Below are positions 1,740 through 51,955 of a DNA stretch of 64,000 nt, piece after piece (positions within the stretch are counted from its first letter, which is position 1; each line of letters opens with the position of its first letter). Source of the stretch: Stegostoma tigrinum (lineage: Eukaryota); contig NC_081357.1 in the NCBI RefSeq assembly GCF_030684315.1, forward strand, positions 42,829,517 to 42,893,516, written 5' to 3'. Position numbers and translations under genes: made by a program. Under the pieces are notes generated by a model. That model worked only from the letters and a program-made list of their open reading frames with translations. It did not search any database and was not told where the DNA came from.

Positions 1740-2240
1740 ATTTCACATTCCAAAAACTCAGTCTAGCGATTTAGGGATATGGGTTCAAATCCCAGCACAA
1801 CAGCCAGTAGAATTTACTTTCTGGTTTACTAATCTGCAATATAAAGCTAGTCTCAGTAACTGTCATCGTGACAACTATCATCAATTGCCAAAAAGAAAAC
1901 ATTTGGCTCATTAATATCTTTTAAAAAATGACATCTACTGTCCTTGGAGATAGTGAGAACTGCCGATGCTAGAGTCAGAGATAACCCAGTGTGGAGCTGG
2001 AGGAACACAGCGGGCCAGTCAGCATCAGAGGAGCAGGAAAGCTGATGTTTCAGGTCAGAACCCATTTCTAAAGAAGGGTCCCGACCCAAAAGGTCAACTG
2101 ATCTACAGCCCTTGCTTGGTCTGGCCTACATGAAACTGCAGCTCCAGAGAGATGTGGTTGATTTTTAATTGCCCCCTGAATGGCCCTAGCAAGCTACTCA
2201 GTTCAAGGGAAATTAGGAATAAGCAACCTATGCAATATCT
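1740..2240 (+). mobile_element. tRNA-derived SINE (shark family with LINE-like tail), interrupted by a PLE mini-element
   Basis: B-box-like GGTTCAAATCCC at ~1782. Body 'ggtctggcctacatg...atgtggttga' and tail 'gcaagc.actcagttcaaggg.aattagg' recur in related copies at ~3160-3370, 48520-48830, 61270-61490 and 62050-62320. Confidence 0.65.
1947..2100 (-). mobile_element. PLE terminus-only insert (inverted configuration)
   Basis: Reverse complement of the PLE 3' end and tail, followed by a short forward arm 'tctaaagaagggtcccgacccaaaa'. Imperfect TSD atctactgtccttg 1933-1946 / atctacagcccttg 2101-2114. Confidence 0.75.
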
Positions 2241-2708
2241 GTAAACTAGAAAGTAATCAGGGAAATAAAATGTTTTCCCTCCCCAATATCTCATGACTGC
2301 TTTCTCCACCCTTCCCAGTGCTGAAGCTGAGATTTGTCATGCGCTTCCAAATGTCAGAGCCCAGTTTTCCCTGACTCCACCTCTTCCATGAGTCTGTCAA
2401 ATTCCCAAGTCTGCACAGAGATTGCATTAGAACCACCCTACATGTCATCCTATGTCTCATCTTCCTGATTTTCGAGCAGCAGCTGCATCCCCAACTCAAT
2501 CGCAACTCTGCCTTCGTTTTGTATCTCAGCTTCACCTCCACCGGTGCCAAAATCCCATTCCCCACACAATATTCCTACCAGCTGTGAATACTTCTAACTT
2601 TCTCAGACATGCTGCTATTACAGATTTCCAAGGGCAGGTGAGACTCAAATCTTCCAGCCTGGAGGTAGAGACACCACCACTGAACCACAAGGTCCCCTTT
2701 CCAAACAG

Positions 2709-2839
2709 GTGTTGACCTCTATCTTGTACCAATTGCTGAGCTTTCAAGAGAAAGGCAAGAAATAGTTAAACAGCTGGAATTAGAGATGATGAGATATGTG
2801 GAATGGTGCGGACTCATAGGAAATGACAGGCCTAGATAA
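2709..2839 (+). CDS. Putative terminal coding exon of an unidentified host gene
   Basis: Acceptor cccttttccaaacAG. Phase-1 open frame VDLYLVPIAELSRERQEIVKQLELEMMRYVEWCGLIGNDRPR ends in TAA (2837-2839). AATAAA at 2847 and 2861. Sequence is non-repetitive and protein-like. Confidence 0.55.
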
Positions 2840-4529
2840 AGCGTGGAATAAAGAATGCATAATAAATAGGGAGATAGATACATACACAATGTGTGACAAT
2901 GCCAGCAGAAAGACAAAAGAATGGAAAATAAACACTGAACCTATTTAAAAACCAGAGTGAAAAGATAAACAAAAGTCTTCCTCCTTGGCTGCAAGCAGAA
3001 GTATAAATGATCCAATTTTCCTGTTGCAATGTTTGCATTTTTTTCAGGATCTAGTTAAAAAATCATTCACTTGATGGGCATTGTTGTTTGCATGCTACAA
3101 TGCTGCATATATTGTCCATCATAGTGGTGGGCCTTCTTGACTAACCAGCATAAAGTACAGTGGCAGACTGGTCATATTACTGGACTAGTCATCCAGAGAT
3201 CGAAATAATGCTTATCAAAATGGATCAATGGTTCAATTAAAATAAACTCTGGAATAAAAGTGTAGCAATAGGTAACCATGAAATTATAGGACTGCCTTTA
3301 CAACCTATCTGGTTCACTGATGTCCGTTTAGCAAAGTAAATCAGACATAGATGATATGTGACTCATGATACTTAGGAGAAAGGCCCTAGGAATGGATGTT
3401 ACATTCAAATGGCTACACCAACTGGTGGCACAATATTATGTGCAATTCTGCCCCTGCACTGGTGAGAACATTGCACCCCGGGTTAGCAACTTTCTTTGCT
3501 AAAGGACACAAATGACCAAGTTGATTCTATACTGCGCCCCTGTTTTGCAACACACTTCATGGTCCTTTTTACTGATACCAGAATTTTGTAAACTGAATGC
3601 AAACTGCCATGGTACGTTCTGAACATATGCCATCCACCCCAACAGTCCAAGCAGTTGGCAGTGTTGCAGCAGAAGCTGTGTTTTCTTCTTGCAGACACCT
3701 GGGCAGGGAACACAACTCAAATCAGATAAGGTGGGTGTTTCCCTTAAATATTAATGTGGGCAGTGCCTGGGCAAGGGTTGAAGATTAGGGGCAGCTGGTG
3801 GGTCCTGAACACAGTGGCAATCCAAGTTAAAGCACTTCCATTTGAAATGAGGGTCCGAGGTTTCTATGCTGAAAAACGTGTAATGGAAATCACAGAAATA
3901 ATGCAGCAACTTAAAGGTAAGTTTACTTTCGTCATTTCTGAACTTTATTTTCACCTTCATATCATGTGAACCTTTGTGCTAGCTGTTACACGTTATTTAT
4001 TTTACCCCGCAGCACAGTTTCTCGCACCAATGGGTTTCCCAGTGTTTGGAAGAAGTAGAGTATGGAATCGTGCCAGACATGTTTGGCTGCACAACAGATA
4101 CCCTCTCTGCCTGCTGGCACCCACAGCTCCCATTACCAGACACTGAGTGCAGGCAGAGAGTCCTTTGCTCAAATCCCTGGCACATCAAACATAATGACGT
4201 CACTAAGATATGTGATATCAAGCTAGACACAATAGTAGATACTTGCTGACAAGCACCAAAACACTGTTTTCCACTGCTTCACGGACAATGTCTTGCCAGG
4301 GTACTTATGGACTAACACAGCTCGACTAGCCACACCCACCACAGTGCCAGCAGCCTGCGGAAATTGTGCATCTACTTGACAGGAGCTGCAGATTTATGCC
4401 ATCTGCTGTAAAGTCCCCTGTAGCTACCATCTAACAAAGGAATTGGTACATCCAATAAAAGCAGCCATCTGCAGCAATCTCTTGCTTGCCCTCACTTTCT
4501 TCCAGGCAAGCTTCCTGCTAACTTTTAAA

Positions 4530-5225
4530 CCAAGCGGAGGCTCGGGGACCACTTTGCAGAACATCTCCGCTCGGTTCGCAATAAACAACTGCACCTCCCA
4601 GTCGCAAACCATTTCCACTCCCCCTCCCATTCTTTAGATGACATGTCCATCATGGGCCTCCTGCACTGCCACAATGATGCCACCCGAAGGTTGCAGGAAC
4701 AGCAACTCATATTCCGCCTGGGAACCCTGCAGCCCAATAGTATCAATGTGGACTTCACCAGCTTCACAATCTCCCCTTCCTCCACCGCATCCCAAAACCA
4801 GCCCAGTTCGCCCCCTGCCCCCACTGCACCACACAACCAGCCCAGCTCTTCCCCTCCACCCACTGCATCCCATAACCAGTCCAACCTGTCTATGCCTCCC
4901 TAACCTGTTCTTCCTCTCACTCATCCCTTCCTCCCACCCCAAGCCGCACCTTGACCTGTCCGTCTTCCCTGGACTGACCTATCCCCTCCCTACCTCCCCA
5001 CCTATACTCTCCTCTCCACCTATCTTCTTTTCTCTCCATCTTCGGTCCGCCTCCCCCTCTCTCCCTATTTATTCCAGAACCCTCACCCCATCCCCCTCTC
5101 TGATGAAGGGTCTAGGCCCGAAACGTCAGCTTTTGTGCTCCTGAGATGCTGCTGGGCCTGCTGTGTTCATCCAGCCTCACATTTCATTATCTTGGATTCT
5201 CCAGCATCTGCAGTTCCCATTATCA
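4530..5225 (+). mobile_element. Penelope-like element (Neptune-type) copy 1, 5'-truncated (end of GIY-YIG, pLTR, tail)
   Basis: Highly similar to 45160-45882; encodes MSIMGLLHCHNDATRRLQEQQLIFRLGTLQP. Exact 15-bp TSD ctgctaacttttaaa at 4515-4529 and 5226-5240. Confidence 0.95.
5098..5129 (+). ncRNA. Minimal type I hammerhead-ribozyme-like motif in the PLE terminus
   Basis: CTGATGA-A-GGGTC-TA-GGCCC-GAAA-C-GTC-AG: catalytic core boxes, stem II hairpin and GUC site. Stem III is only a CG palindrome and stem I is only ~2 bp. Confidence 0.65.
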
Positions 5226-5769
5226 CTGCTAACTTTTAAAGATGGCTCCATGTAGAGGTATAGGGAACTATTCAAGGCCATCTTTGAAGCATCGCCTAGA
5301 CATCAGCAGCTAACAAGACAGGATGGCAGGTATTCAACAGCATCATTGCTTGCTTGCAGATTTGTCCTGTGCATTAGATTTCTCCTGATTTTTGATTTTT
5401 TATCGTTGCCAGTCACTTCAACCTCAGCATTGATTGTTAATGTAAATCTTTACAGTTTCTCCCAAGTCTTTGAACACGTTTATTATCATATTGCAACATT
5501 CTTTAAAGCTTGTTTATAAACTCTTTCTCTGACACTTCAGTGGTTCCTACCCCTTTCGGGCACTGCACCTGACCAGAACGCAGGTAGTAGAATGACTTAA
5601 ACAAACATGGCTCAAAGTAAATCCAAATGGGAAGAACGAAAGTTTTCTGTGTAAATTGGCATGGTTAAATGGGATGGATAGTATTATCGAAGTTTCTGTT
5701 GTGCATCAGACTGTATCACAACGTGTCTAATTGACAAATTGGAATTCTCACTTAGAGAGGCCAAGGGTT

Positions 5770-6830: not shown

Positions 6831-7575
6831 AAGTAAACAAACACTGTAACTGGATTAAACATGCATCTGTGGCAGTTTGGGCAAGTTCCCTTTCCCTGGA
6901 ACTGCATTTCAGTTCAAATCAGAGAAAATTGGAATTAGCAGAGATAAACGGGATTACTCACATCTTTTCAGAGGTTTCTTTTCTGCACAGCTCTAGTGTT
7001 CAAAACAAAATCATCTCAGTATGTGACAGGCATGAGTAACAGTCATGATCATTTACTAAGAGCCTGTTATTAAATTCACACCCACTAATTTACCAATAAA
7101 GGAAGAAAAGTACCTCGTTTTAGCATGACAAATATTAAATCCAGCTGTACAAACTACAGAGATCTTTGATACAGATTGTCCTACTTTGCTGTCTCCAACC
7201 TGATGTTTACGATTGCGAATACATGTGATCTTTCAGATAAAATTATGTAATTGTGAGCCGGATAACTGCGCTACCATAGCAACTAACAAGCTGGTAAACA
7301 AGCTTGCTGAAAATCATATAAGTATCATTATATAACGCAATCAATGAATTATAAAACGGATCCAATTTCATAAATGTTAGCAGAATATATGAGCATGCTA
7401 CATCAAAACTGCAGGGTTTTTTTCTATCAATTGTGCTCACCTGTGGATTTTCTTTTCTGAACTACACCCCTAAATAACTGAGTATGTTTCAAACTGTCTG
7501 GAAATTTATTAGTGGTCACACTAGGAAGAAATTTATGGTTCAATCAGTGGAAACAGGTCATTTCAAAAGTCATGA

Positions 7576-7897
7576 GATAACAAAATGTAGAGTTGGATGA
7601 ACACAGCAGGCCAAACAGCATCAGAGGAGCAGGAAAGTTAATGTTTCTGGTCTGGACCCTTCTTCAGAAATGGGACCATTCAGAAATGTGGATTTGGAAG
7701 GATCTCAATGTCTGAATGTAGACATTGTCATGGTTTGGGCCAAATTGGGAAGGATGGCCCATTTCTGAAGAAGGGTCCAGGCCTGAAATGTCAGCTTTTC
7801 TGCTCCTCTGATGCTGCTTGGCCTGCTGTGTTCATCCAGCTCTACACTGTGTTATCTCAGATTCTCCAGCATTGGTAGTTCCTACTATCTCTGAATC
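7576..7897. mobile_element. Fold-back PLE mini-element (two inverted termini, ~80-bp spacer)
   Basis: Left arm 7573-7676 is the reverse complement of right arm ~7758-7859, and only the right arm carries the tail. Exact TSD catttcaaaagtcatga at 7559-7575 and 7898-7914. Confidence 0.9.
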
Positions 7898-15945: not shown

Positions 15946-16170
15946 AATAACACAGTGTGGAGCTGGAGGAACACAGCAGGCCTGGCAGCATCAGAGGATC
16001 AGGAAAGCTGACGTTTTAGGATAGGATCCTTCTTCAAAAGGGGCCATTTTCTGAAGAAGGGTGCCAACCTGAAATGTCAGCTTTTCTGATCCTCTGATGC
16101 AGCCTGGGCTGCTATGTTCCTCCAGCTCCACACTGTGTTATCTCAGACTCCAGCATCAGCAGTTCCTACT
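15946..16170. mobile_element. Fold-back PLE mini-element
   Basis: Arm 15946-16037 is inverted relative to ~16048-16143, with the tail on the right arm. Imperfect TSD cacattt(t)tatt(c/g)aa on both sides. Confidence 0.85.
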
Positions 16171-16183
16171 AAACCCACATTTT

Positions 16184-16560
16184 ATTGAAGCTATTCGTCT
16201 TGCATTCATTCGGACAATTTTCAAGAATAACAATTCAAAGACAAAATAAAAATTAACACTTGCATGTGATGGAAGATTGGTTGGGAAGTAGACTCTGGTC
16301 GGGCCATTTCCATAAATAATGCACAAATTAGTAATGAGTGATAATTAACTTTCAGGCTTTGTTTACATTTTAAACAGGGAGGGTGATACTGGCAATTAAC
16401 TGCCAGTTATCATTAATTGGTGCATGAAATGGTTTCTTGGCAACACCTCTACCAATTAGCACTTTCTGTTCATGTAGCGAAAATGCTGGCTTTCTCTTCG
16501 AATTGTTATTCTTGTGAACCATCCTGATGAGTTCAGGATGAAAAATTTTGACAATATGCT
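16184..16560. mobile_element. Old palindromic element with hammerhead-like ends (third PLE-like family)
   Basis: The right end 'cctgatgagttcaggatgaaaaattttgac' mirrors the left end, whose reverse complement is 'ccgaatgaatgcaagacgaatagcttcaa'. Imperfect inverted arms extend inward (caagaataacaattc / gaattgttattcttg). Confidence 0.6.
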
Positions 16561-18574: not shown

Positions 18575-18666
18575 TGACGAAGGATCTAGGCCTGAAACGT
18601 CGGCTTTTGTTCTCCAAAGAGGCTGCTTGGCCTGCTGTGTTCATCCAGCCCCGCACTTTGTTATCT
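18575..18666 (+). mobile_element. Solo PLE terminus
   Basis: Starts at the hammerhead box (gacgaaggatctaggcctgaaacgtc) and ends at ttgttatct. TSD ctggttgacagt / ctggttgatggt differs by CpG decay. Confidence 0.8.
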
Positions 18667-19644
18667 CTGGTTGATGGTTATTTGCATGTGGGAGCAATTA
18701 TGCTTTCTGCTGCCTCACTGTGCAACACTGTGCGAGTGCTGAGCAGTATGTCAGGTACGCACTGGTGGGTGGAGGGCACGGTTTTAACCTGACCTGTTGA
18801 GTGTAAGATACTGCAATAGAGTGATACACTGCTTTAAGTCCTGTACAATGTTAACCCTCTGGCTAACTATGAGAAGAATTAAAGAAGGCTGGGTTTAAAA
18901 AAAGAGAGGCATTTTTCCTAGCAATATCCTGAAGGGATATGTTAGATTTTTCCACCATGATTCTACTGCTGCCTGATGCAACGTCTCATCTTGAATGATC
19001 ATTGGCCCCATATTTTCATGACCCAGCCCTTGACCTGTGCAAGAGCTTCTGACCAAATTGGATAGTTTCTCAGAATCCGCAGTAGTTTATCTCTAACAAG
19101 ACATGGGGCAGTGTAATATCACAAAGGTCATTTAGCATTTTGCACAGAAAAGATTGGAAACAGTCACTAACATCAATTATAATAAGATTCAGAGGTATGT
19201 GCTCCAGTCCCTACGTCAGTGAAAGCAGCACATTGCAAAGGTTCACCATTTAAGCTCAGGCTGTGGGCTGCAGCTCATTTCAATAATATTAATCTTTAAG
19301 TTTGAAACATGGAGTACAGCTGGGACAAGAGGATGTGAGGGCCATTAGGCCAGCAGACATTTATTGGCTGAAATAAACAAAAACATTGATATATTTTTCT
19401 AAACAAAATCCACCACTTGTAGTAAACAACTGGCTGGAGTTCTGCATCACGCATTACTCTTCCAAAGCTGTTCATGACAGGTCACGCTACTTTCAATTTA
19501 AAAATAATTGAGACACAGGCACTTTCATTACAAAATTGCATTGACGCTAAATAGTTAGCTACTATCAACAGACACAGAAATTGCAATGTGTAGCTATATT
19601 ATGTCCATTCAGTTTACTATAGACAACAAGCCAAATACCATTAC

Positions 19645-25104: not shown

Positions 25105-25285
25105 AAGTCGGAGAAACTCAGCAAGTCTGGCAGCATATGTGGAGAGAAGACAGAACTGAAGAGGATTATTGGACTCAAAATATTAACTTTGTTTTCTCTC
25201 CACAGATACTGCCAGACTAGCTGGGTTTCTCCAACAATTGCGGGTTTTGTTTGTTTCAGATCTCCAGCATCAGCACTTCTTCATT
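25105..25285. mobile_element. Fold-back relic of a fourth PLE-terminus family
   Basis: ggagaaactcagc..gtctggcagcatatgtggagagaa is inverted to ttctctccacagatactgccagactagctgggtttctcc. The centre holds a decayed hammerhead 'ctgaagagg...ggactcaaaatatt'. Related relics lie at ~1510-1610, 17310-17380 and 39765-39840. Confidence 0.65.
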
Positions 25286-25384: not shown

Positions 25385-26850
25385 GCAGAAATGGCCTATT
25401 CAGCACTTTGAACCTAATCCAGCATTCAGCAAGATCATGGTTGATCTTCATGTGCTTTGAACTCCACATTTCTAATTTTCCCCAATGATCCTTGATTCCT
25501 CTGCCTAAGAAGAATCTATTTACTACTGCCTTAAAAATATTAAATGACCATGCCTCCATCCCCTTCTGAAACAGGGAATTCTAAAGTCACACATCCTCCG
25601 AGACAAAACAAATTCTCCTCCTCTCTGCCATGAAAGGATAAACTCCAATGTTAAAATAGTGTCCCCAGCCTGGATTCACTCACAAGAACAAACATACTTT
25701 CAATGTTCACCTTGTCAAGACCATTCAGGATCTTACACACTAAAATCAAGTTACCACTCACTTTTTTAAACTCCGGCTTGTCCAAACTATCCTTGTAAGA
25801 CAAGCCACTCATTACAGATATCAGTCTAATAAACCACTTTGAACTACCTCCAAAGCACTTACATCCTGCCTTAAAAAGGAGACCAAAATGGACACGGTTT
25901 TTTTGAGATATGGACTCAACAAGCTTGGCATTTACTTTTCTGTTCAATTCCTTTCAGAATAAAGGACAGAATCACGTTAGCATTCTGATTTCATTGTGTA
26001 CATGCATACTAACTTCAAAGTAACTCACCTTCAACAACATCCAAATCCCCTTTGTATCTTAGGATTCCACTATCATTCTCTGCTGAAGTGATACTCTTTT
26101 TTTTTATTTTTCCTGCTGAAGTGAATGACTTCACATTTTCCCACTTTATACTCTGCCAGATTTTAGCCCATTCACTCAACCCATCTAATTCCATCTTTAA
26201 CTTACTTATGTCTTCTTAACAACTCACTTTCCTCAGTATGTTGATGTTGTCAGTGGATTTAGCTACCATATCTTTGCTCCCCTCATCTAAGTAATTGATG
26301 TGAATTGTGAAAAATTGAGTCTCCAGACCAGCTCACTGCAGGACTCCAACATCACGACCTGCCAATCAGATGAAAACCCATTTATGTATACTCTCTGAGA
26401 TAGTAGGAACTGCAGGTGCTGGAGAATCTGAGATAACAGGGTGTAGAGCTGGATGAGCACAGCAGGCCAAGCAGCATCAGCGGAGCAGGAAGGCTGATGT
26501 TTCGAGCCTAGACCCTTCTCCTGAAATGGTTCTGCCTTCCTACTCCTCTGATTCTGCTTGGCCTGCTGTGTTCATCTAGCTCGACACCTTGTTATCTATG
26601 TATACTCTCTGTTTTCTGCCAGTTAGACAATCTTCTATGCAGGCCAGTATGTTAGTCATGACACTGTGCACTTTTAATTTTCGTAAAAACCTTTGATGCA
26701 GCTCTTTATCAAATACCACATTTATATCAAAGCATGGTACATCTACAGGCTCTCTTTTATTCATAGCTTGTGTTACTCTTTTAAAGAGGTCCACTAAAAT
26801 GATTAACCCATTGACAAAACTGTGCTGACTCTGTCCAATTAATTCTAAAT
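25385..26850 (-). mobile_element. Decayed CR1 LINE (RT region to 3' UTR)
   Basis: Minus ORFs 'EPVDVPCFDINVVFDKELHQRFLRKLKVH...IEDCLTGRKQRV' and 'GNLILVCKILNGLDKVN'; CR1 3' UTR near 25390-25480. Confidence 0.85.
26398..26596. mobile_element. Fold-back PLE mini-element nested in CR1
   Basis: Tail-bearing arm on - plus a short + arm. Exact 15-bp TSD tatgtatactctctg at 26383-26397 and 26597-26611. Confidence 0.9.
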
Positions 26851-27002
26851 GTACTGTTGTAATCTCCTTTCTTGATTGGTTCTAACACCTTTTAATGACA
26901 GAAAGCTAACTAGTCTTTACTTTATAATTCTAATTCTAAATTCTAAACTAAGAGTCCAGCTGATCGCAGTCAGAAAACACAATCAAGCCTTAAAGGTGAG
27001 AA

Positions 27003-28321
27003 TTAGATTTCAACATGAAACTGTCCTGGTCTTTGTAGCATGGTGTTTACTAGCTGAGCCTCTTTTCATTTGTGATTTAATTATCTCTTTCATGTACTAT
27101 TTACAATGAACGTTAACAAAATTTTGTTCCTAAATCTGGGGTTTAGATAGAGAGTATTTTACTCTAAGAGAAATGTTCAAATTTGGGGCAGGAATCAGCC
27201 ATTTAATTCTTTGAGCCTATGTTGTCATTAATTAAGGTTGTGGCTGATACGATTTTACTCTCAAATGCACGTTCCCGTCTATCCCTGATAACCTTGCATC
27301 CCTTTGCTTATCGAAGGTCTATCAGCCTCTGTCTTAAAAAAAATTCAAGATCTCCTGCCCTTTTGAGGAAGAGAATTCCAAAGATGCATAATTCTCTGTG
27401 AGAAATAATTTTTCCTTATCTTAAATAAACTGTCTCTTATTTTTAATCAATGACTCCTAGTTCTTGATTGTCTCACCTTTCCATGTCCACCCTGCTAAGA
27501 TCCTGAGGATCTTGCATTTTAATCAAATCACCTCTCACTCTTCTAACCATAAGCAGATACAAGCTGAGCCTGTCCAACCTTTCCTCAGTAGACAACCTGC
27601 CTATTCCAGGTATTAACCTTTGAAGCTTTTCTGAACTGCCAGTAACACATCTAGGTACCTATTTAAATAGAGGGGTCATATACCATACTCCAGATGCAGT
27701 GTCCCTAATGCCTTGTATAACTAAAATAACAACATTGTATTAGTTTTCATAATCTCTTGCTATACTTGCATACTAGACTTTTGCAATTCATACACTTGGA
27801 CACCCAAATCTCTTTGCATCTCAGAGTTCTGCAATCTTTCATCAGACAGATTTTTTTGACTAATTGTTCCAGTCAAAAAGGACAAATTTTATCACATTGT
27901 ATCCTATTTGCCATGTCTTTGGCTATTTATAATCTTTTGCATTCTTGTGTTCTCTTCAAAACTTAGTTATTGCAAACTTATACTTAGTGATTTAAACCTA
28001 CCCTCCCAATTGTCTAGCTTTAGTACTTGTTTTCTCATTTGTTTCCCTCTAAAAGGAATAAAAGTGCATTCATTCACTACCACCACAGTCAAATCGGATG
28101 GAAAATAAATACTAGCCTTGCTGAATAGAAACATCTATATCCAGAGAAAGAATGAAAAAAAAAATTCTGAGATCAGATAGCTTAGCAAAGATTTAGATTT
28201 CAACATGAAACTGTCCTGGTCTTTGTAGCATGGTGTTTACTAGCTGAGCCTGTTTTCATTTGTGATTTAATTATCTCTTTCATGTACTATTTACAATGAA
28301 TGTTAACAAAATTTTGTTCCT
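27003..28321 (+). repeat. 129-bp near-perfect direct repeat (27003-27131 / 28193-28321)
   Basis: The two copies differ at only 2 positions and are 1190 bp apart. Confidence 0.95.
27170..27900 (-). mobile_element. Decayed CR1 LINE 3' fragment
   Basis: Similar to 25385-26100 (e.g. 'cctgtccaacctttcctca', 'atactccagatg...cctaatgccttgtataa'). Confidence 0.7.
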
Positions 28322-30314: not shown

Positions 30315-30946
30315 ACTCAGGCCCTGTTGTAAATTATGCGTTTTATTACAGCAGGAGTCAACTTTAATCAGGGCTGAGCTCCAAGTGTTCTTCTTACTTT
30401 GACACTGGCCCAACATGAAGCTGAGGAACTGAATTCACAGGTTATGGGAATGGGCAGTCTAGGGGCAGATGCAATTTCGTGCAGAGAAGCACTAGAAAGA
30501 ATGTGGTTGAAAGAATGAGGAGAGACAATATGAATTACATTTGAAGGGGGTTAGGGAGAGCAAGGACACTAAGACCAGTGGTACATGTGCACAAATCACT
30601 GAAGGTAGCAAAGCAGGCTGAAGGTATGGTTTAAGAGGCTTGCAGGATCCTGAGTTTTATAAAAAGGGGCATAGACTGCAAAAACAAGGAGGCTATGATT
30701 AACATTTACAAAACACCAGCTTCTCTTGAAGTACTTTGTCCAATTCTGGGGATAGCACCGCAGGAAGAATGACTGTACTGTCGGTTTAGAGAGTGTAGAA
30801 GATATTTCTTTTCTATTCAGCCATGGTGTGTGGGTGTCAGCTTAATATTGGTTCAGAGTCAAAGTAAGAAGAACACTTGGAGCTCAGCCATGATTAAAGT
30901 TGACTCCTGCTGTAATAAAGCACATAATTTACAACAGGGACTGAGT
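30315..30946. repeat. 110-bp inverted repeat (30315-30424 / 30837-30946)
   Basis: The ORF track gives near-identical peptides on opposite strands (QSKKNTWSSA.IKVDSCCNK.HNLQQGLS). Confidence 0.95.
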
Positions 30947-32185: not shown

Positions 32186-33340
32186 AAGTTTCTGGCGCAA
32201 CACATCCCTCACACCCCACCCCCGCCACAACCGCCCAAAGAGGATCCCCCTCATTCTCACATACCACCCCACCAACCTCCGGATACAACGCATCATCCTC
32301 CGACACTTCCGCCATTTACAATCCGACCCCACCACCCAAGACATTTTTCCATCCCCTCCCCTGTCTGCTTTCCGGAGAGACCACTCTCTCCGTGACTCCC
32401 TTGTTCGCTCCACACTGCCCTCCAACCCCACCACACCCGGCACCTTCCCCTGCAACCGCAGGAAATGCTACACTTGTCCCCACACCTCCTCCCTCACCCC
32501 CATCCCAGGCCCCAAGATGACATTCCACATCAAGCAGAGGTTCACCTGCACATCTGCCAATGTGGTATACTGCATCCACTGTACCCGGTGCGGCTTCCTC
32601 TACATTGGGGAAACCAAGCGGAGGCTTGGGGACCACTTTGCAGAACACCTCCGCTCAGTTCGCAAAAAACAACTGCACCTCCCAGTCGCAAACCATTTCC
32701 ACTCCCCCTCCCATTCTCTTGATGACATGTCCATCATGGGCCTCCTGCACTGCCACAATGATGCCACCCGAAGGTTGCAGGAACAGCAACTCATATTCCG
32801 CCTGGGAACCCTGCAGCCATATGGTATCGATGTGGACTTCACCAGTTTCAAAATCTCCCCTTCCCCTACTGCATCCCTCAACCAGCCCAGTTCGTCCCCT
32901 CTCCCCACTGCACCACACAACCAGCCCAGCTCTTCCCCCCCACCCACTGCATCCCAAAACCAGTCCAACCTGTCTCTGCCTCCCTAACCGGTTCTTCCTC
33001 TCACCCATCCCTTCCTCCCACCCCAAGCCGCACCCCCTGCTACCTACTAACCTCATCCCACCTCCTTGACCTGTCCGTCTTCCCTGGACTGACCTATCCC
33101 CTCCCTACCTCCCCACCTATACTCTCTCCACCTATCTTCTTTACTCTCCATCTTCGGTCCGCCTCCCCCTCTCTCCCTATTTATTCCAGTTCCCTCCCCC
33201 CATCCCCCTCTCTGATGAAGGGTCTAGGCCCGAAACGTCAGCTTTTGTGCTCCTGAGATGCTGCTTGGCCTGCTGTGTTCGTCCAGCCTCACATTTTATT
33301 ATCTTGGAATCTCCAGCATCTGCAGTTCCCATTATCTCTC
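32186..33340 (+). mobile_element. Penelope-like element copy 2, 5'-truncated (linker, GIY-YIG, pLTR, tail)
   Basis: ORF 32517-32987 FTCTSANVVYCIHCTRCGFLYIGETKRRL...; near-identical to copy 4. Hammerhead core at 33212-33239. No clear TSD. Confidence 0.95.
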
Positions 33341-39012: not shown

Positions 39013-39760
39013 AACATAGAACATAGAACACTACTGCACAGGAATAGGCCATGTTGCTATTCTAAACTAATCCAAGCTAATCTAAACTAATCCCACCTGC
39101 CTGCAAATGGTTCATGTCCCTCTATTCCCTTTCTGATCATATGTCTGACTAAATGCCTCTCAAACTTTGCTATCATATTTGCTTCTACCACTTTCCCTGG
39201 CAGTGTGTTTCAGAAACCTACCACCTTCCCTCACAAATCTCCGTTAAGCTTACCTCCTCTCACTTTAAGCCTATGCCCCCTAGTATTTGACATTTTCACC
39301 CTGGGGAACAGACTCAGACCTTTTGCTGCTTTTCATAATGTTATGTAATTCTATCTGGTCACTCTCCAGTGTCTGATGGTCTAGCAAAAACAATCAATAT
39401 TTTGTACAACCTCTCCTTTTAGCTACTATACTTTAATCCAGGCAACATCTCAATAAATAGAGATAGTCAGAACTTCAGATGCTGTAGAATCGGAGATAAC
39501 AAGGTGTAGAGCTAGATGAACATTTTTTCTGAAGAAGGGTCTAAGCCCGAAACATCAGCCTTCCTGCTCCTCTGATGCTGCTTAGCCTGCTGTGTCCATT
39601 CAGCCCTACACCTTGTTATCTCAACATCTCAGTAAATGTCTTCCACACCTTCTCCAAATCCTTCCCATTGTGTGCTAACCAGAACTGTACACAGTACTCT
39701 AAATGTGTCCTGAACAAAGTCTCACACAGTTGCAACATTACTTGCCAACTTTTATATATG
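39013..39760 (-). mobile_element. CR1 LINE 3' end
   Basis: (aacatag)n tail at 39013-39030; minus ORF RTHLEYCVQFWLAHNGKDLEKVWKTFT. Confidence 0.85.
39459..39621. mobile_element. Fold-back PLE mini-element nested in CR1
   Basis: Inverted tail arm plus a + arm with ctgaagaagggtctaagcccgaaacatc. 16-bp TSD caacatctca(a/g)taaat at 39443-39458 and 39622-39637. Confidence 0.85.
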
Positions 39761-40172
39761 GTGAGAAAAGGTTTCTGGTTAGATGCCACAGACACACATC
39801 TGGTATCCAGGAGCATTGTGGAGAAGGAATCTGAGAATCTTGAAGTTGGCAGAACGACCAAGAGTCGGTGGCAAAAGGAGATTATAGGGAGGGCTGAAAA
39901 AATGCTCCTGGAGCTGATATTTTACCAGAGATTTTTTAAATGGACAGAGAGGACCCAGATGCAAAAATTTCATCCCATTTCAAGTTGATACAAATTTTCC
40001 CTGTAGTGAAAAGGCAATAGGACATGAATCCATCAACTATGAAGTGCAATGCACTGAAAATAAATGCTGAATTAAAACAGACTTCATTTTTGTTATTTCA
40101 AGGAATTTAATCAGTGGTATGAGAGTCACAAATTTATGGAAGAGATGTAAACATACTTGAGGGGCAGTTAAG

Positions 40173-42076
40173 CCCTGGCCGATCTATTGTCTCCGCCTGG
40201 TCCTGCCCCACTGAACTCATCTCCACATATCTGGACTCCATTTTCTCCCCCTTGGTCCAGGAACTCCCCACCTACATCCGTGACACCACCCACGCTCTCA
40301 ACCTCCTCCAGAACTTCCAATTCCCTGGCCCCCAACACCTCATTTTCACCATGGACGTCCAGTCCCTGGACACCTGCATTCCCCATGCAGATGGCCTCAA
40401 GGCTCTTCACTTCTTCCTGCCCCACAGGCCCGACCAGTCCCCCTCCACTGACACCCTCATCTGCCTAGCCGAACTCGTCCTCACCCTCAACAACTTCTCT
40501 TTCGATTCCTCCCACTTCCTACAGACAAATGGGGTGGCCATGGGCACCCGCATGGGCCCAAGCTATGCCTGCCTCTTTGTTGGTTACGTGGAACACTCCC
40601 TCTTCCGAGCCTACACCGGCCCCAAACCCTACCTCTTCCTCTGTTACATTGATGACAGTATCGGCGCCGCCTCTTGCTCCCAAGAGGAGCTCAAACAGTT
40701 CATCTACTTCACCAACACCTTCCACCCCAACCTCAAGTTCACCTGGGCCATCTCCAACACGTCCCTCACCTTCCTGGACCTCTCAGTCTCCATCTCAGGC
40801 AACCAGCTAGAAACTGATGCCCATTTCAAGCCCACCGACTCCCACAGCTACCTAGAATACACCTCCTCCCACCCACCCTCCTGCAAAAATTCCATCCCCT
40901 ATTCCCAATTCCTCCGCCTCCACCACACATGCTCCCAGGATGAGGCATTCCACTCCCGCACATCCCAGATGTCCACATTCTTCAAGGACCTCAACTACCC
41001 CCCGCAGTGGTTGAGAATACCCTTGACCATGTCTCCCGCATTTCCCGCAAAACATCCCTCACACCCTGCCCCCGCAATAACCGCCCCAAGAGAATCCCCC
41101 TCGTCCTCACATACCACCCCACCAACCTCCGGATACAACGCATCATCCTCCGACACTTCTGTCATCTACAATCCGACCCCACCACCCAAGACATTTTTCT
41201 ATCCCCACCCTTGTCTGCCTTCCAGAGAGACCACCCTCTCCGTGACTCCCTTGTTTGCTCCACACTCCCCTCCAACCCCACCTCACCCGGCACCTTCCCC
41301 TGCAACTGCAGGAAGTGCTACACCCGCCCCCACTCTTCCTCCCTCGCCCCCATCCCAGGCCCCAAGATGACTTTCCATATCAAGCAGATGTTCACCTGCA
41401 CATCTGCCAATGTGGCATACTGTACTCACTGTACACGGTGTGGCTTCCTCTACATTGGGGAAACCAAGCGGAGGCTTGGGGACAACTTTGCAGGACACCT
41501 CCTCTCAGTTCACAATAAACAACTGCACCTCCCAGTCGTGAACCATTTTAACTCCCCCTCCCATTCCTTAGATGAAATGTCCATCATGGGCCTCCTGCAG
41601 TGCCATAATGATGCCACCCAAAGACTGAAGGAACAGCAACTCATATTCCGCTTGGGAACCCTGCAACCCAATGGTATCAATGTGGACCTCACAAGCTTCA
41701 AAATCTCCCCTCCCCCCACTGCATCCCAAAACCAGCCCAGCTCATCCCCGCCTCCCTAACCTGTTCTTCCTCTCACCTATCCCCTCCTCCCAACTCAAGC
41801 CGCATGTCCATTCCCTACCTACTAACCTCAACCTGCCCCCTTGACCTGTCTGTCCTCCCTGGACTGACCTATCCCTTCCCCACCTCCCCACCTCCTCTCC
41901 ACCTATCTTCTCCTCTATCCATCTTTGGTCTGCCTCCCCTTCTCTCCCTATTTATTTCAGAACCCTCTCCCCATCCCCCTCTCTGATGAAGTGTCTAGGC
42001 CCGAAACATCAGCTTTTGTGCTCCTGAGATGCTGCTTGGCCAACTGTGTTCATCCAGCTTCACCCTTTGTTATCTA
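40173..42076 (+). mobile_element. Penelope-like element copy 3 (longest, older, frameshifted)
   Basis: RT motifs FTMDVQSL, GVAMGTRMGPSYACLF and YIDD, with a frameshift near 41000 and then linker and GIY-YIG. Exact TSD tgaggggcagttaag at 40158-40172 and 42077-42091. Lacks the tail. Confidence 0.95.
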
Positions 42077-44221: not shown

Positions 44222-45532
44222 AAGGGGGTGGCCATGGGCACCCGCATGGGCCCCAGCTATGCCTGCCTCTTTGTAGGTTACGTGGAACAGTCCATCTTCC
44301 GCACCTACACAGGCCCCAAACCCCACCTCTTCCTCCGGTACATTGATGACTGTATCGGCGCCGCCTCTTGCTCCCCAGAGGAGCTCGAACAGTTCATCCA
44401 CTTCACCAACACCTTCCACCCCAACCTTCAGTTCACCTGGGCCATCTCCAGCACATCCCTCACCTTCCTGGACCTCTCAGTCTCCATCTCAGGCAACCAG
44501 CTTGTAACTGATGTCCATTTCAAGCCCACCGACTCCCACAGCTACCTAGAATACACCTCCTCCCACCCACCCTCCTGCAAAAATTCCATCCCCTATTCCC
44601 AATTCCTCCGCCTCCGCCGCATCTGCTCCCACGATAAGACATTCCACTCCCGCACATCCCAGATGTCCAAGTTCTTTAAGGACCGCAACTTTCCCCCCAC
44701 AGTGATCGAGAACGCCCTTGACCGCGTCTCCCGCATTTCCCGCGACACATCCCTCACACCCCGCCCCCGCCACAACCGCCCCAAGAGGATCCCCCTCGTT
44801 CTCACACACCACCCTACCAACCTCCGGATACAACGCATTATCCTCCGACACTTCCGCCATTTACAATCCGACCCCACCACCCAAGACATTTTTCCATCCC
44901 CACCCCTGTCTGCTTTCCGGAGAGACCACTCTCTCCGTGACTCCCTTGTTCGCTCCACACTGCCCTCCAACCCCACCACACCCGGCACCTTCCCCTGCAA
45001 CCGCAGGAAATGCTACACTTGTCCCCACACCTCCTCCCTCACCCCCATCCCAGGCCCCAAGATGACATTCCACATTAAGCAGAGGTTCACCTGCACATCT
45101 GCCAATGTGGTATACTGCATCCACTGTACCCGGTGCGGCTTTCTCTACATTGGGGAAACCAAGCGGAGGCTTGGGGACCACTTTGCAGAACACCTCCGCT
45201 CAGTTCGCAACAAACAACTGCACCTCCCAGTCGCGAACCATTTCCACTCCCCCTCCCATTCTCTTGATGACATGTCCATCATGGGCCTCCTGCACTGCCA
45301 CAATGATGCCACCCGAAGGTTGCAGGAACAGCAACTCATATTCCGCCTGGGAACCCTGCAGCCATATGGTATCAATGTGGACTTCACCAGCTTCAAAATC
45401 TCCCCTTCCCCCACTGCATCCCTAAACCAGCCCAGTTCATCCCCTCCCCCCACTGCACCACACAACCAGCCCAGCTCTTCCCCCCCACCCACTGCATCCC
45501 AAAACCAGTCCAACCTGTCTCTGCCTCCCTAA
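44222..45532 (+). CDS. PLE polyprotein C-terminal part: RT motifs, thumb, Cys linker, GIY-YIG endonuclease, Pro/Ser repeats (no native start)
   Basis: GVAMGTRMGPSYACLF, FLRYIDD, GTFPCNRRKCYTC and VVYCIHCTRCGFLYIGET; no stops up to 45532. Confidence 0.9.
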   Translation, partial: KGVAMGTRMGPSYACLFVGYVEQSIFRTYTGPKPHLFLRYIDDCIGAASCSPEELEQFIHFTNTFHPNLQFTWAISSTSLTFLDLSVSISGNQLVTDVHFKPTDSHSYLEYTSSHPPSCKNSIPYSQFLRLRRICSHDKTFHSRTSQMSKFFKDRNFPPTVIENALDRVSRISRDTSLTPRPRHNRPKRIPLVLTHHPTNLRIQRIILRHFRHLQSDPTTQDIFPSPPLSAFRRDHSLRDSLVRSTLPSNPTTPGTFPCNRRKCYTCPHTSSLTPIPGPKMTFHIKQRFTCTSANVVYCIHCTRCGFLYIGETKRRLGDHFAEHLRSVRNKQLHLPVANHFHSPSHSLDDMSIMGLLHCHNDATRRLQEQQLIFRLGTLQPYGINVDFTSFKISPSPTASLNQPSSSPPPTAPHNQPSSSPPPTASQNQSNLSLPP

Positions 45533-45882
45533 CCGGTTCTTCCTCTCACCCATCCCTTCCTCCCACCCCAAGCCGCACCCCCAGCTACCTACTAACCTCA
45601 TCCCACCTCCTTGACCTGTCCGTCTTCCCTGGACTGACCTATCCCCTCCCTACCTCCCCACCTACACCCTCTCCACCTATCTTCTTTACTCTCCATCTTC
45701 GGTCCGCCTCCCCCTCTCTCCCTATTTATTCCAGTTCCCTCCCCCCATCCCCCTCTCTGATGAAGGGTCTAGGCCCGAAACGTCAGCTTTTGTGCTCCTG
45801 AGATGCTGCTTGGCCTGCTGTGTTCGTCCAGCCTCACATTTTATTATCTTGGAATCTCCAGCATCTGCAGTTCCCATTATCT
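44223..45882 (+). mobile_element. Penelope-like element copy 4, 5'-truncated, uninterrupted ORF
   Basis: 8-bp TSD cttttgta at 44215-44222 and 45883-45890. Hammerhead core at 45757-45784. Confidence 0.95.
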
Positions 45883-46812
45883 CTTTTGTATGTTTCACCT
45901 TGGTCCCATGTCTGACAATGCACTTAACTTTGCCAATACCCTTTTCTGCCTCATACCTCAAACTTATTGAAAGTTTGTCATTATCTTGGTGCATGCACAA
46001 GGCCAGGAATTTCACGTCATGTTGTGTTTTGGTGTTCTATCAATTGTTTCAACTATCAGGTTTGTACTCAGGGCCTGTAGTCGTCATGCACTTGTAAGGA
46101 CAGCTTTGTGCTTACATCCGTCCTTCTGTAGATCTTCGATGCGAAAATAAGTCTTCAGTAAGTTCAACAAATTCTTCTGGAAACTTTAAGGGTGTATGTA
46201 ATCTCTAACTCAATAATTCTGTTTGCCAACACTCCATTTAAGAAAAAGAGACCTTTTCTCTGCATCTGCTCACGAAGTGGTCTATTTCTCTTCCATTTCT
46301 ATCATGTAGGGCTCTGTCAAAATGAAATGAATTCTAATCAAAGTATATGAAAGCTTAATCTAACTCTGAACTGGTCTGAATTTTGTGATCTTTCAGTTCC
46401 TTAGCTTTTAATCCTGACAATGCTAAATATTCCCAATTACTAAACAAATCATGATCATTTTCTATTTTGCATCGGATACACCCAAATCTTAAGACCATGG
46501 CTCTAAATACTGTTCAAACAACTTAAACTTTGTTAGGAGGTTCTCAGTATCCCATCTTAAACTCGAAAATTTTGCTAACTTTCAAATAACATGTCTCTGA
46601 GCTTCCCATGCTTGCTATCAATCCAGCACACATCCTGATCACTTGCCTTTCTCAACTGAGTTTAAAAGGCCTCTTGACAGGAATTTGGCTCCTTACCAGC
46701 AAGCTGCATTTTTAGTGCTTTCCAACACTGTAACAAACAAAGACATTGAGGGCTGTCTTTTACCTTTAACATGATCTAATGTTGTCAGCCATGTGTTTCA
46801 GCTGTTCATTAC

Positions 46813-46881
46813 CTTGATTGCTGAATACTCAAGATAATAGACGATTTCAGAACAATGTTTTCCACCCCTGTTGATCAAGTC
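46813..46881 (-). CDS. Candidate 69-nt exon (phase 0 to 0)
   Basis: cattaacAG, DLINRGGKHCSEIVYYLEYSAIK, GTaatg. Confidence 0.3.
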
Positions 46882-49556
46882 CTGTTAATGATAATTGTTT
46901 CCTAAACAATCACATGTTAGGGATTGATCAACTCCATGGGTTGCTTTATTTAAAACAGTAAAACACATTGTCAGTAATGAAGCAGACATGACAGAAAATC
47001 AAATGATTTCTGAATGTATAGCTTATGATCCCATCACAAGATAACTGGCTGGCAAATGGATTTTTTAAAGGTGAACTCTCTGAAAGGCAAGGTACATTTT
47101 CAATAAATCGAGCTGTTATTAATTGAAAAAATAGGAGTAACTTATATGCTAAATGTGAAATGTGTTCATAGATGTAAACATCAATAACTTATATATATTG
47201 GAATACCAAAGCAAAATACAAAATTTCACAGCATGGGTCAGTTGCTGATGTGTGTTGGCACAGCTGAAAATGTATTTAGCACCAAAAATAATTTTTTTCC
47301 TGGAGTGTCCATCCTGCAATCTCTGAATAACCTGATTTAAAATCATTGGAAATGACTTTAAAAAGTGAACTGAATCATTTAATAGTTATATTGGTCTCCA
47401 TTAATTAGTTTCCAAGTAAATCAAATAACCTTTCACATAAAAAAGACTTTTAAAACAGTCCTATTAGCACCCAGCTAGTGGTGTCAATGGGTAATTTCTC
47501 ATTTCTAAATACATGTGGCTTCTGAATACAACTATCTTAGACTCAATGTGATGTCTACCAACCAGTATTAATCCAGTGGTGTATTCATTATCTGTGTTCA
47601 GAAATAAAAAGGCAATTGCTTGGATCACACATGAGTAGAGATTGCTACAGATGGAACTCTATAACTGTGTTGCAACATTCAGAAAACAGATATAGGGAGA
47701 AAATGAAATATGAAAAAAATATACTTGGGAATTCAACAGCAAGGTATTAAAGTGCCTTAAACTGTGGCATATAAGCCAGCACATGTAAAAAACAATGTTT
47801 TTTTTTCTAGCCCCAAAAGTCGTTTTCACATATCCTCAGTTGGGCTCACATAAGATTTTCACCCTCAGGTTTTCACTACATAAATGAAAATCTTACTCAG
47901 ATTGTAACTGGGGGACAAGTGATCAAGCAGGCAATGTGAGCTGTGTTGCACAGATGTGTTGGAGTTTAGGAAGCATCCATTCTTTGTGTTTATATACCAA
48001 TGGTGATTCAAAATGGTGACTGCACAAACCTACGTTAGCTGTTCACTTCACAGTCAGTGAATGAGTCAATCCCCATTTGTTGGAGAGATTCAAGCCTTCA
48101 GTGCTTGATTTATTTGTCAACTTTGAGCAGAAAGTTGTAGAAAAAAACATAAGTTAATATTTACTGAATATTTCATTCCCTGGCTTATGTATGATAGTTT
48201 TTACACAAACGTTGTTTACTCATTTGTATCTAATATGTTTCAAACAGAAATCAAGCTTTAATGAAATAAAGCTAAGTGAAATCACTTCAACTAATTGACT
48301 ACTGAATGTTTAAAATTATAATAAAGGAGAAAGTCCAAGATGGAATGAGATAATCTTTACAAAGGGGCAGACTGTATCCCTGTTACAGTCAAAGCACCAA
48401 ATAGTTTTAGAGTTCTGCACGCCCAGAACTTCAAGCAGATATCGGTATTGCCATGGTTACACTTCTAAATGTTTTCCCACACAAATTACATGCCACTGTA
48501 TATTTTGAATGTATTGCTGGCACAGTGGTTATGTAACTGGATTAGTAATCCAGATGCCTGGAATCATAATCTGAGGACGTGCACGTTCAAACCACACCTC
48601 AACAGTTGAAGAAAATAAATTGAATAAAACAATAATAAAAAGTTAATATTGGTAATAGTCTTCAGGAATTGGCTAATAACCAAACTGGTTTACTTCTATC
48701 CTTGTTCAGTCTGGCTTATATGTGTTTCCAGATCCACAGCCATGTGGTTCACATCAAAATAGCTTTGGAAATAGGCTAGCAAGTTATTCAATGACAAAGT
48801 TTAGAAAGTGGCCCACTAGCAAATGCAGAACTTGCTCAATAATTTCGTGACAGTACAGCATTACAGCTCCTCATTTCTTAATCTCTCGTCAAAATATCTG
48901 ACAGCAATCTTTCTGCACCACTCACCCCCTCCACTCCACACACTCCTTACTATTCTGATGCACAATTACGAATACACACTTACTGCTTCCTCACTGTCTT
49001 TATAGCAGCACCAATACAATTCCCCCTTTTTGTCAGTATTGTTTCATGAGTCTTCTTTCACACTCTGGGCCCATATTTTCCAGCTAACATCCCTACCTTG
49101 ATTTCATGTTGCTTCTTCTCCCTCAGCTTGTGTACAGCAAGCAGAAGCTCAGTCATTGATGTTCTTCTCTGTAAGAAATGTTCACTAACTCTCACCATCC
49201 CTTGCTGCTGGACAGCACCATGCACCAATAGAGAGAGGAGTAAAATCTGATGAATTCTTCAATGTTGTGAAGTAAAGGAAGCATCAATTGCTTGCAGTTA
49301 ATAGATCATTATGGACTGCCAGATGGACTTAGGAAGCTTCTCTACTCAATATCTGAATATTACCAGTATCTCTCCAAGAACATCTAGGGGATCTACTGGA
49401 TTGTGAAAGTACCTCAGTGGAGGAGAATCCTCTCAAGAAGATGTCACCCAACACTCTAGACCTCACATACACCTGCACAGAAACTAGGGCCCTGTCTTGT
49501 TTCGAATTAAAGGAGTCTATATGTGGTGAAACTCTCAGCAGCAACAGGAGCTAGCA

Positions 49557-50627
49557 AAAGCAGAAAGCAAAGAGTAGGGGTAAATAGGTGTTTTTCTGGT
49601 TGGTGGTCAGTGGCTAGTGGTGTGCCTCAGGGATCAGTGTTGGGACCTCAATTGTTTACAATTTGCATAGATGATTTGGAGTTGGGGACTAAGTGCGGTG
49701 TGTCAAAATGTGCAGATGGCACTATGGTGATTGGTAGAGCAAAGTGTGCAGAAGACACTGAAAGCCTGCAGAGGGATATAGATAGTTTAAGTGAGTGGGC
49801 AAAGGCCTGGCAGATGGAGTACCATGTTGATAAGTGTGAGGTCAGCCATTTTGGTAGGAATAACTGCAAAAAGGGCTGTGTTTTAAATGGCAAAAAATTG
49901 CAGCACACTGCTGTGCAGAGGTACTTGGGTATCCTTGTGCATGAATTGCTAAAAGTAGGTTTGCAGGCGCAGCAGATAATTAAAAAGGTAAATGGAATTC
50001 TGTATGCCATTGTTAGAGGGATGGAGTTTAAAAACAGGGAAGCAATGCTGCAGCTGTAGAGGGTCCTGGTGAGGCCACACCTGGGTACTGTGTGCAGTTT
50101 TGGTCTCCTTACTTGAGAAGAGATACACTATCACTGGAGTGGTGCAGAGGAGGTTCACTTGATTGATTCCAGAGTTGAGAGGGTTGGATTATGAAGAGAG
50201 GCTGAGTAGACTGGGATTATACTCATTAGAATCCAGAAGAATTCGAAACATATAAGATTATGAAGGGAATAGATATGGTGGAGGCAGAGAAGTTGTTTCC
50301 GCTAGCAGGTGAAACTAGGACTAGAGGGCATCGCCTCAAAACAGAGGGAAGCAGATGTAGGACTGAGATCAGGAGGAATTTCTTCACCCAAAGGGCTGTG
50401 TATCCGTGGAATTCCCTGCCCAGTGAAGCAGTTGAAGCTACTTCGATGAATGTTTTTAAGGCAAGGCTAGATAAATTTTTGAGCAGTAAAGGAATTGAGG
50501 GTAATGGTGAGTGGGCGGGTAAGTGGAGTTAAGTCTCAAATAGATCAGCCATGATCTTATTAAGTGGTGGGGCAGGCTCGAGGGGCCAGATTGCCTACTC
50601 CTGCTCCTAGCTCTTATGTTCTTATGA
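49557..50627 (+). mobile_element. CR1 LINE, 5'-truncated
   Basis: RKQRVGVN...SGVPQGSVLGPQLFTICIDDL...KCADGT; LFPLAGETRTRGHRLK...RRNFFTQR. Tail (tcttatgt)n at ~50612-50627. Confidence 0.95.
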
Positions 50628-51025: not shown

Positions 51026-51049
51026 CAGTGATATAATATTGTCTTCTAA
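51026..51049 (-). CDS. Candidate 24-nt micro-exon (phase 0 to 0)
   Basis: Branch-like ctaac followed by ctgttatAG, LEDNIISL, G|GTAAGT. Confidence 0.3.
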
Positions 51050-51402
51050 CTATAACAGGTTAGACAGGACAATAACTAGACAGGATAAAGCTTAGCACAA
51101 GGCTTCATGCTGAAATAATTCCCCATAGAGACTGGTATCATGTGATCTTAGATAACTGATGATTTACACTGTTTATTCACATATTTAAGATGAACCCTTT
51201 ACACTAAATTTGCAGTTTCAATTTCAGTGATCATTTAAATTTCTGCCAGAGATCAACCCTGTGCTTCTTGAACTGATCCACTTCTCCTTGAACACTCTGG
51301 TGGAACAAATGAATGGAAACTTTTATCTTCTGAAATTACTGGAAATGCTGAGTCACAGCCTCAGAGGATCTATAGTCATGAATTCATCTTTCTCTCTCTC
51401 AC

Positions 51403-51529
51403 TTGCTCATTCGCTTTCAGTATTTCTGCTTTCATATCAGCTCTTGGTAAAACCAAACTTTCCACTCCAGGCCCTCTGAGGCTCTGGTTAGTCTGGATTT
51501 CAGTGGCCACAAGCATTTTGAGGGTTACC
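51403..51529 (-). CDS. Candidate 127-nt exon (phase 2 to 0)
   Basis: ttttttctccaaAG, VTLKMLVATEIQTNQ...EILKANEQ, GTGAGA. Confidence 0.4.
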
Positions 51530-51862
51530 CTTTGGAGAAAAAACGGCTTTAAACTGCTGTTTTTAGTCGATGGCACCCATAATGATGTTGATAGTGGTGG
51601 ATTCAGTGATAGTAATGCCATTAAATGCCATGTTCATTCATGCCAATAGTTTTCTGGCTTTCTTTCTTTCCAGAGTGGGGTTCTGATAATTCTTCAGAAT
51701 TCCAACAAAAACATCCATTTTCCTAACACCTGCTTGTTCTCCCCACCCCTCAATTAAATGTATTCATGAGGCACCCTACCCAGTTTCTCGCCAGTTGCCT
51801 CTGACCTGAGTCAGTTCTACAGATATAGTATTGCTCAGCATCTTTACTGGGCACAGAAGTGT

Positions 51863-51955
51863 AAGAAAGGTCTAGGCCTGAAACGTCAGCCTTCCTGCTC
51901 CTCTGATGCTGCTTGGCCTGCTGTGTTCATCCAGCTCCACACCTTGTTATCTCAG
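51863..51955 (+). mobile_element. Solo PLE terminus
   Basis: aagaaaggtctaggcctgaaacgtcagccttcctgctcctctgatgctgc...ttgttatctcag. Confidence 0.85.

Follow-up and report, generated by a model that had tools for sequence, protein, structure and literature searches.

Short fold-back inserts, 150-320 bases in length and built only from the termini of Penelope-like elements (PLEs), recur in a 64,000-nucleotide (nt) stretch of the Stegostoma tigrinum genome (contig NC_081357.1, hereafter the window), and we show here that these hairpins are a real and abundant minimal form of the known PLE insertion layout, not a new non-autonomous family. A first-pass annotation of the window had reported at least five inserts consisting of two inverted termini, each with its own target-site duplication (TSD). 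All five are present at the claimed places as head-to-head PLE termini with their 3' ends outward and their own TSDs (11-17 bp), but the second arm of the insert at 1947-2100 is merely 39 nt long. The layout of an inverted copy with a one-sided tail has already been published; to it we add three quantitative end rules. In the published insertions of endonuclease-bearing (EN+) PLEs the tail is described as being "often" or "optionally" at one end, whereas here we found a near-strict pairing of one tailed with one tailless arm, coupled arm lengths and a fixed 5' stop.

Terminus positions 1-135 follow the PLE terminus at window positions 45750-45884, in which the CUGANGA box of the hammerhead begins with the C at position 8, the tailless end lies at about 100, the tailed end lies at 135 and the predicted hammerhead cut falls after position 35. 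From 24 large contigs of the 3.2-Gb source assembly we took 134 stretches of 10 kb, each placed at a round-number position (1.34 Mb including 10,200 N bases, i.e. 1.33 Mb), and added the window. Together these contained 358 terminus arms, namely 102 head-to-head pairs and 154 unpaired arms. A TSD score of at least 7 was reached by 73 of the 102 pairs as compared with 1 of 289 shuffled flank pairs used as control, with a mode of 15 bp. Outside the window, 68 pairs lacked a long arm, which corresponds to about 51 per Mb of the sampled 1.33 Mb (a few nested cases included). Provided that the sample is typical, we estimate around 160,000 short fold-backs genome-wide (on the order of 1-2 x 10^5).

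After 13 pairs with one arm ending elsewhere were set aside, 89 of the 102 pairs could be classified by their tails: 85 combine a tailed with a tailless arm, none is tailless on both sides and four are tailed on both sides (binomial p 8e-21). These four run on into the open reading frame (ORF) and are inner joints of arrays. The one-tail rule also holds for 22 of 24 long-long, ORF-bearing pairs. Arm lengths are coupled as well, as the 85 one-tailed pairs comprise 22 long-long, 60 short-short and only 3 mixed pairs (Fisher p 5e-17). The 5' reach of the two arms was compared in 58 short pairs; the tailless arm extends further by more than 5 nt in 26, the tailed arm in 14, and the two end within 5 nt of each other in 18. 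In those 26 pairs each arm has sequence that its partner is without, thus neither arm is a copy of the other and simple snap-back copying fails. Private variants common to both arms number 45 in 13,129 overlapping sites, where about one is expected, and fall in 18 of 55 young-type inserts, nearly all of them long. In 16 of 45 tailed short arms the sequence past the tail matches the three bases found there in ORF-linked copies (6% expected), and therefore the template of such arms often ran on toward the ORF. Twin-priming inversion of the L1 type, with non-overlapping arms, was considered and rejected, as the tailed arm starts at position 87 or later in only 5 of the 58 short pairs and overlaps its partner in the rest.

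The first-pass annotation had offered two readings of the hairpins, a non-autonomous family mobilised in trans and minimal abortive integration products of an older subfamily. Shared arm junctions and spacers, by which self-propagation would be recognised, did not emerge from the sample: the 60 one-tailed pairs that lack a long arm show 59 different junction signatures, and the only repeat sits on a natural palindrome axis. These 60 junctions are of several types (19 overlaps, 7 blunt joints, 22 with 1-10 nt of filler and 12 with longer filler). Within an insert the arms differ by 0.050 (13 young pairs) or 0.127 (22 old pairs), as compared with 0.096-0.098 and 0.173-0.175, respectively, between inserts, where like arms are no closer to each other than unlike arms. 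At p<0.02, tailed and tailless arms cannot be told apart by any alignment column. We judge it very improbable that a hairpin acts as a non-autonomous element whose transcript PLE proteins re-insert in full. The abundance of about 51 short fold-backs per Mb would fit such an element, as would the recurrence of a perfect palindromic joint at position 4, which was counted at 888 loci. However, the distinct junctions and the grouping of arms by insert argue against whole re-insertion, and so do the first 15 palindromic-joint loci listed, each of which has its own subfamily variants in both arms (distances of 0.032 within and 0.057-0.062 between loci). Of these 15 loci, 13 pair a tailless arm with a tailed one; in another an arm is cut, and the last belongs to a larger palindrome. 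A fold-back with a master structure, comparable to miniature inverted-repeat transposable elements (MITEs) or short interspersed nuclear elements (SINEs), was rejected on the same grounds of distinct junctions and of arms grouping by insert.

Whether the hairpins constitute a separate lineage was judged by diagnostic sites and distances. The variants said to distinguish the hairpins from the ORF-bearing copies do split the two groups within the window. In the larger data set, 12 long arms with the same variants extend into the PLE body, several of them over reverse transcriptase (RT) and EN sequence, and each common variant class includes both long and short arms. A lineage separate from the autonomous elements was therefore rejected, and mobilisation of a hairpin family in trans is not borne out. 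The old subfamily that carries the hairpin variants (divergence about 0.10) has 12 long, 5 intermediate and 53 short arms, and the young subfamily (divergence 0.03-0.04) has 73 long, 6 intermediate and 45 short arms. The share of short arms thus drops from 53/70 to 45/124, and either long copies have been lost over time or the behaviour of the element has changed. The second reading, minimal integration products, was right in kind; the products are not confined to an older subfamily, and with ends that obey rules they are not randomly abortive.

The third rule concerns the 5' ends. Of 336 arm starts mapped outside the window, 70 fall at positions 4-8, 9 at positions 1-3, 22 in the 60 positions upstream, 101 further upstream and 134 past position 8. 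The pile-up lies 0-4 nt ahead of the hammerhead core. Only 8 starts fall around the hammerhead cut site (34-38), and we rejected hammerhead cleavage as the process that sets the ends; a splice acceptor lying some 19 nt before the terminus, where a single arm starts, was rejected as the boundary too. Genome-wide exact counts of the base preceding position 4 of the young core gave 63,872 for the templated C, 5,035 for G, 1,602 for T and 806 for A, so that G is present in 5,035 of the 7,443 copies without the templated C. One base to either side, G was counted by hand 34 and 33 times among the first 100 matches listed. Close inspection of 30 loci showed four to be point variants of long copies, with G present at 21 of the 26 true junctions. 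An untemplated 5' G in L1 and SVA is read as a reverse-transcribed cap, and hence as a mark of capped RNA, in PMC4859970, which also cites L1 twin priming. The young start further matches 7 of 8 letters of the TCT initiator in its fly consensus as given in PMC4102762, a weak hint given that it lies inside a pyrimidine tract.

The parent element appears to be an EN+ PLE. Its arms end 3' in two clusters at about 100 and 135 (an optional tail, as in EN+ PLEs), and the inverted copy, seen in the 102 head-to-head pairs, and the TSDs with their 15-bp mode complete the layout. RT motifs and GIY-YIG-like motifs are visible in translations of the ORF-bearing copies of the window. An open frame at locus L113 spans at least 881 amino acids and runs off the locus end, with Pfam matches to RVT_1 (E=1.9e-5) and GIY-YIG (E=0.05) that are both below the curated cut-off; a PDB sequence search gave no match. 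In five loci (L096, L101, L107, L110 and L113) a partial-tandem pseudo-long terminal repeat (pLTR) overlaps the start of the next unit in the order 3' untranslated region (UTR), terminus, ORF start. Retrozyme-like arrays, both tandem and inverted, were observed as well; their units of about 250-450 bp are PLEs with an internal deletion and consist of the terminus, the first 87-199 nt after the tail and the last 29-115 nt of the 3' UTR (L115:6765-8434, L142:5250-6183, L184:9214-9628, L185:7431-7879 and L130:3149-3489). Their deletion joint is private to each locus and is common to both inverted arms in L115, L142 and L184.

We consider it probable that the hairpins arise by twin priming, in which both nicked strands prime at two RT start sites in the 5' pLTR, the cDNAs run off at a likely capped RNA end and the products are joined head to head. 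In L1 twin priming, both target strands use the element RNA for priming, and the outcome is a 5' inversion whose joint has small indels; the arms are adjacent, non-overlapping parts of the RNA and the second priming site is not fixed. In the elements studied here, by contrast, neither site varies, the two lie 35 nt from each other, and most arm pairs overlap. The spacing of the TSDs suggests that the endonuclease would make a staggered cut about 15 bp apart, after which one 3' end would prime at about 135 and the other at about 100, the two positions at which arms are seen to end. Priming in the pLTR copy closest to the 5' end of the RNA would yield two cDNAs of at most 100-135 nt, similar to strong-stop products, and priming at the 3' pLTR copy would make both arms long, so that the long pairs would be products of the same reaction. 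The cDNAs would run off a likely capped 5' end just ahead of the hammerhead, and their ends would then be trimmed and joined with short overlaps or filler, which would explain why the observed junctions are unique. The hammerhead would be a passenger whose cut site has no role in setting the ends. The short products are likely dead ends; a transcribed stub could in principle serve as a template. More tentatively, and with somewhat less than even confidence, we suggest that PLE integration in general is obligate asymmetric twin priming, performed by an RT dimer that uses, on a single RNA, two fixed start sites separated by 35 nt, with each nicked strand served by one of them. The estimated 160,000 strong-stop-like hairpins would then record both sites together with a capped start in the pyrimidine tract just before the hammerhead.

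Other origins of the short pairs have to be weighed against twin priming on an autonomous transcript. PMC3846280 proposes self-priming on an antisense template, and a related possibility is that a single cDNA or antisense template snaps back and copies itself, with the endonuclease resolving the intermediate and leaving the tail on one side, close to the explanation of the tail outlined in PMC8557442. This would cover identical arms, coupled lengths and shared private variants, as well as the 888 palindromic joints and the 18 of 58 short pairs that end within 5 nt, but does not account for 26 of the 58 pairs, whose tailless arm carries extra 5' sequence and no tail, unless nearly half of the cases underwent a later asymmetric deletion; we give it little credence. 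We also regard as unlikely that twin priming took place on a short, SINE-like non-coding RNA transcribed from solo or hairpin stubs. Non-autonomous PLE derivatives are known (MRC1, described in PMC8557442), and the higher proportion of short arms in the old subfamily would be in line with such a template; however, long arms are present in every common variant class, and tailed short arms enter the leader bases of the ORF far above chance, which random stub flanks would not give.

A further alternative concerns the 5' stop alone. The RT might have stalled where it met the pyrimidine tract or the border of the hammerhead fold and have added a non-templated C, in which case the pile-up at positions 4-8 would not mark the RNA 5' end. 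The boundary does coincide with the start of a C-rich tract, 123 of the 202 arms that reach position 8 go on past position 1, and the old subfamily shows no G signal. Against stalling, the G excess is limited to one base, and arms that stalled independently of each other would not give as few as 3 mixed long-short pairs in 85. We think that stalling is an improbable, though not negligible, source of the stop.

Several observations weigh against the twin-priming interpretation with a capped start. An initiator (Inr)-type start with a cap G was predicted for the old subfamily, to which the hairpins of the window themselves belong, and by hand count the equivalent base showed no G excess (22 G, 59 A and 19 T among the first 100 of 951 matches). 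Some of the extra G in the young subfamily derive from the partner arm, as in the perfect palindromic joints, or lie within the TSD. Nine copies have a terminus upstream of the ORF start; five of these, being partial tandems, extend well upstream of position 4, and the only one to start at around position 5 is L114. Many templates therefore have their start further upstream. The private variants that the two arms have in common are not enriched in A-to-G changes (3 A>G, 9 T>C), leaving no mark of editing, and may come from gene conversion between arms; the level that is supported is one source locus for both arms, short of one RNA molecule. The two arms of long-long pairs correlate weakly in length (rho 0.42, p 0.05, with approximate extents), the 154 unpaired arms make up a large part of the 358, and a TSD was found in just 19 of 72 short solos.

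As for the ribozyme, the pLTR carries a predicted minimal type I hammerhead with an extra base before helix II and a helix I of only 2 bp. The description of the inserts as hammerhead-bearing holds for 4 of the 12 short arms in the window, which match the minimal core (helix II being intact in three of them), and fails for the remainder; core and helix II survive in at most one arm of each insert. In the predicted folds of the 7576 and 15946 inserts the core is locked within the inter-arm stem. An Rfam scan of the window found no match to a hammerhead family, and one hairpin gave a sub-threshold microRNA (miRNA) match. Across the full set of arms, core and helix II are kept in 22/30 young short, 58/82 young long, 14/51 old short and 4/19 old long arms. 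Selection for an intact ribozyme in the hairpins was not seen. A non-LTR retrozyme was rejected, as the window inserts are head-to-head and not head-to-tail units that each carry a hammerhead. The finding does not amount to a new ribozyme family.

The features of the window are collected in Table 1.

Table 1. PLE-derived inserts and PLE copies in the window; arm extents are terminus positions
Feature	Window positions	Strand	Arms or terminus	TSD	Remarks
Fold-back	1947..2100		tailed arm -, 6-134; second arm +, only 39 nt	14 bp, 2 mismatches	old subfamily; hammerhead core broken in both arms
Fold-back	7573..7897		tailless arm -, 1-102; 83-nt spacer; tailed arm +, to 135	17 bp, perfect	+ arm retains minimal hammerhead core
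Fold-back	15946..16171		tailless arm -, to 98; tailed arm +, 5-130	11-bp perfect core	
Fold-back	26397..26597		tailed arm -, ~4-134; tailless arm +, ~25-100	15 bp, perfect	
Fold-back	39459..39623		tailed arm -, ~72-135; tailless arm +, 5-102	16 bp, 1 mismatch	each arm has private sequence missing from its partner
Solo tailless terminus	18575..18667	+	9-100	8 bp	hammerhead core cut at 5' end
Solo tailless terminus	51863..51955	+	12-103	none found	
ORF-bearing PLE, 5'-truncated	4527..5227	+	tailed terminus		EN end and 3' UTR; young subfamily
ORF-bearing PLE, 5'-truncated	32196..33339	+	tailed terminus		young subfamily
RT-EN PLE copy, longer, frameshifted	40123..42075 (left edge approximate)	+	tailless terminus		
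RT-EN PLE, 5'-truncated	44222..45884	+	tailed terminus		holds the reference terminus 45750-45884
Fold-back of an older, related terminus family	25107..25275		one long, one short		absent from the first-pass annotation

The two solo termini had been described as starting almost exactly at the CUGANGA box; they do start near it, just inside the box, and their hammerhead cores are broken for this reason. The 83-nt spacer of the second fold-back is absent from the other 39 scored genome matches. This filler (window 7675-7757) includes short palindromes of its own and repeats part of the arm end, reminiscent of templated-insertion repair. The older, related terminus family has 84 further matches in the sample, including several head-to-head pairs with unequal arms (for example L059, L135, L143 and L166), thus the unequal-arm layout predates the family studied here.

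The window also contains repeats of other kinds. Degenerate 68-nt inverted arms, 245 nt apart, adjoin the 15946 insert (16178-16558) and have a CUGAUGA hammerhead-like motif near the right arm. A 110-nt inverted repeat (30315-30946), whose arms are 92% complementary and lie 412 nt apart, is possibly a local inversion. No second copy of either was found in the 1.33-Mb sample. A 133-bp direct duplication with 98% identity occurs at 26999-27131 and 28189-28321, 1.2 kb apart. An RT fragment of a different retroelement lies at 49511-50059 (Pfam RVT_1, E=2e-9) and presumably resembles a CR1-type long interspersed nuclear element (LINE).

Published accounts of EN+ PLE insertions describe an inverted, 5'-truncated copy and a one-sided tail of 30-40 bp (PMC8557442; Pen2a_Av in PMC3846280). 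The elements described here share with them the head-to-head inverted terminus, the one-sided tail, the TSD, full-length copies in partial tandem and what looks like an RT followed by GIY-YIG, and differ in that an insert can consist of two termini alone, at about 50 per Mb. The closest biochemical parallel is Poseidon of Anolis carolinensis (PAc), for which the in vitro work reported in PMC11167929 shows two RT start sites that bound the tail and a protein, predicted to dimerise, that nicks and extends both strands. PAc thus agrees with our proposal in its two start sites flanking the tail, in the nicking and extension of both strands and in insertion without the need for hammerhead cleavage; the main text of that report draws no tie between the two sites and opposite strands of one target or inverted inserts. 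The PAc ORF begins inside the hammerhead (PMC11167929), whereas here the long ORF has its first in-frame Met about 40 nt past the tail. The dual minimal hammerheads of Schistosoma, which occupy opposite strands with about 100-700 bp between them, receive a one-sentence mention as truncated PLEs in PMC4209133. Being paired, ORF-less and in opposite orientation, they are probably the same kind of object, and the text that mentions them gives no analysis of junctions, tails or TSDs. Non-LTR retrozymes, as presented in bioRxiv 10.64898/2026.07.22.740005, are likewise ORF-less and pLTR-derived with a type I hammerhead, but form head-to-tail tandem repeats with a consensus of their own, in contrast to the head-to-head one-offs found here. 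The origin of the inverted ends and one-sided tail of PLEs is called unresolved in PMC8557442 and PMC11167929, the latter leaving the later steps open. Among the titles and abstract openings searched, mostly outside subscription journals, we found no published proposal of twin priming or run-off stubs for PLEs.

For annotation, these results mean that an estimated 1-2 x 10^5 hairpins should not be labelled as MITEs, retrozymes or miRNA precursors. The stubs place a candidate RNA start to single-base precision, and the three end rules are directly testable in the existing in vitro system. Obligate asymmetric twin priming, if true, would explain why PLEs as a class have an inverted pLTR and a tail on one side.

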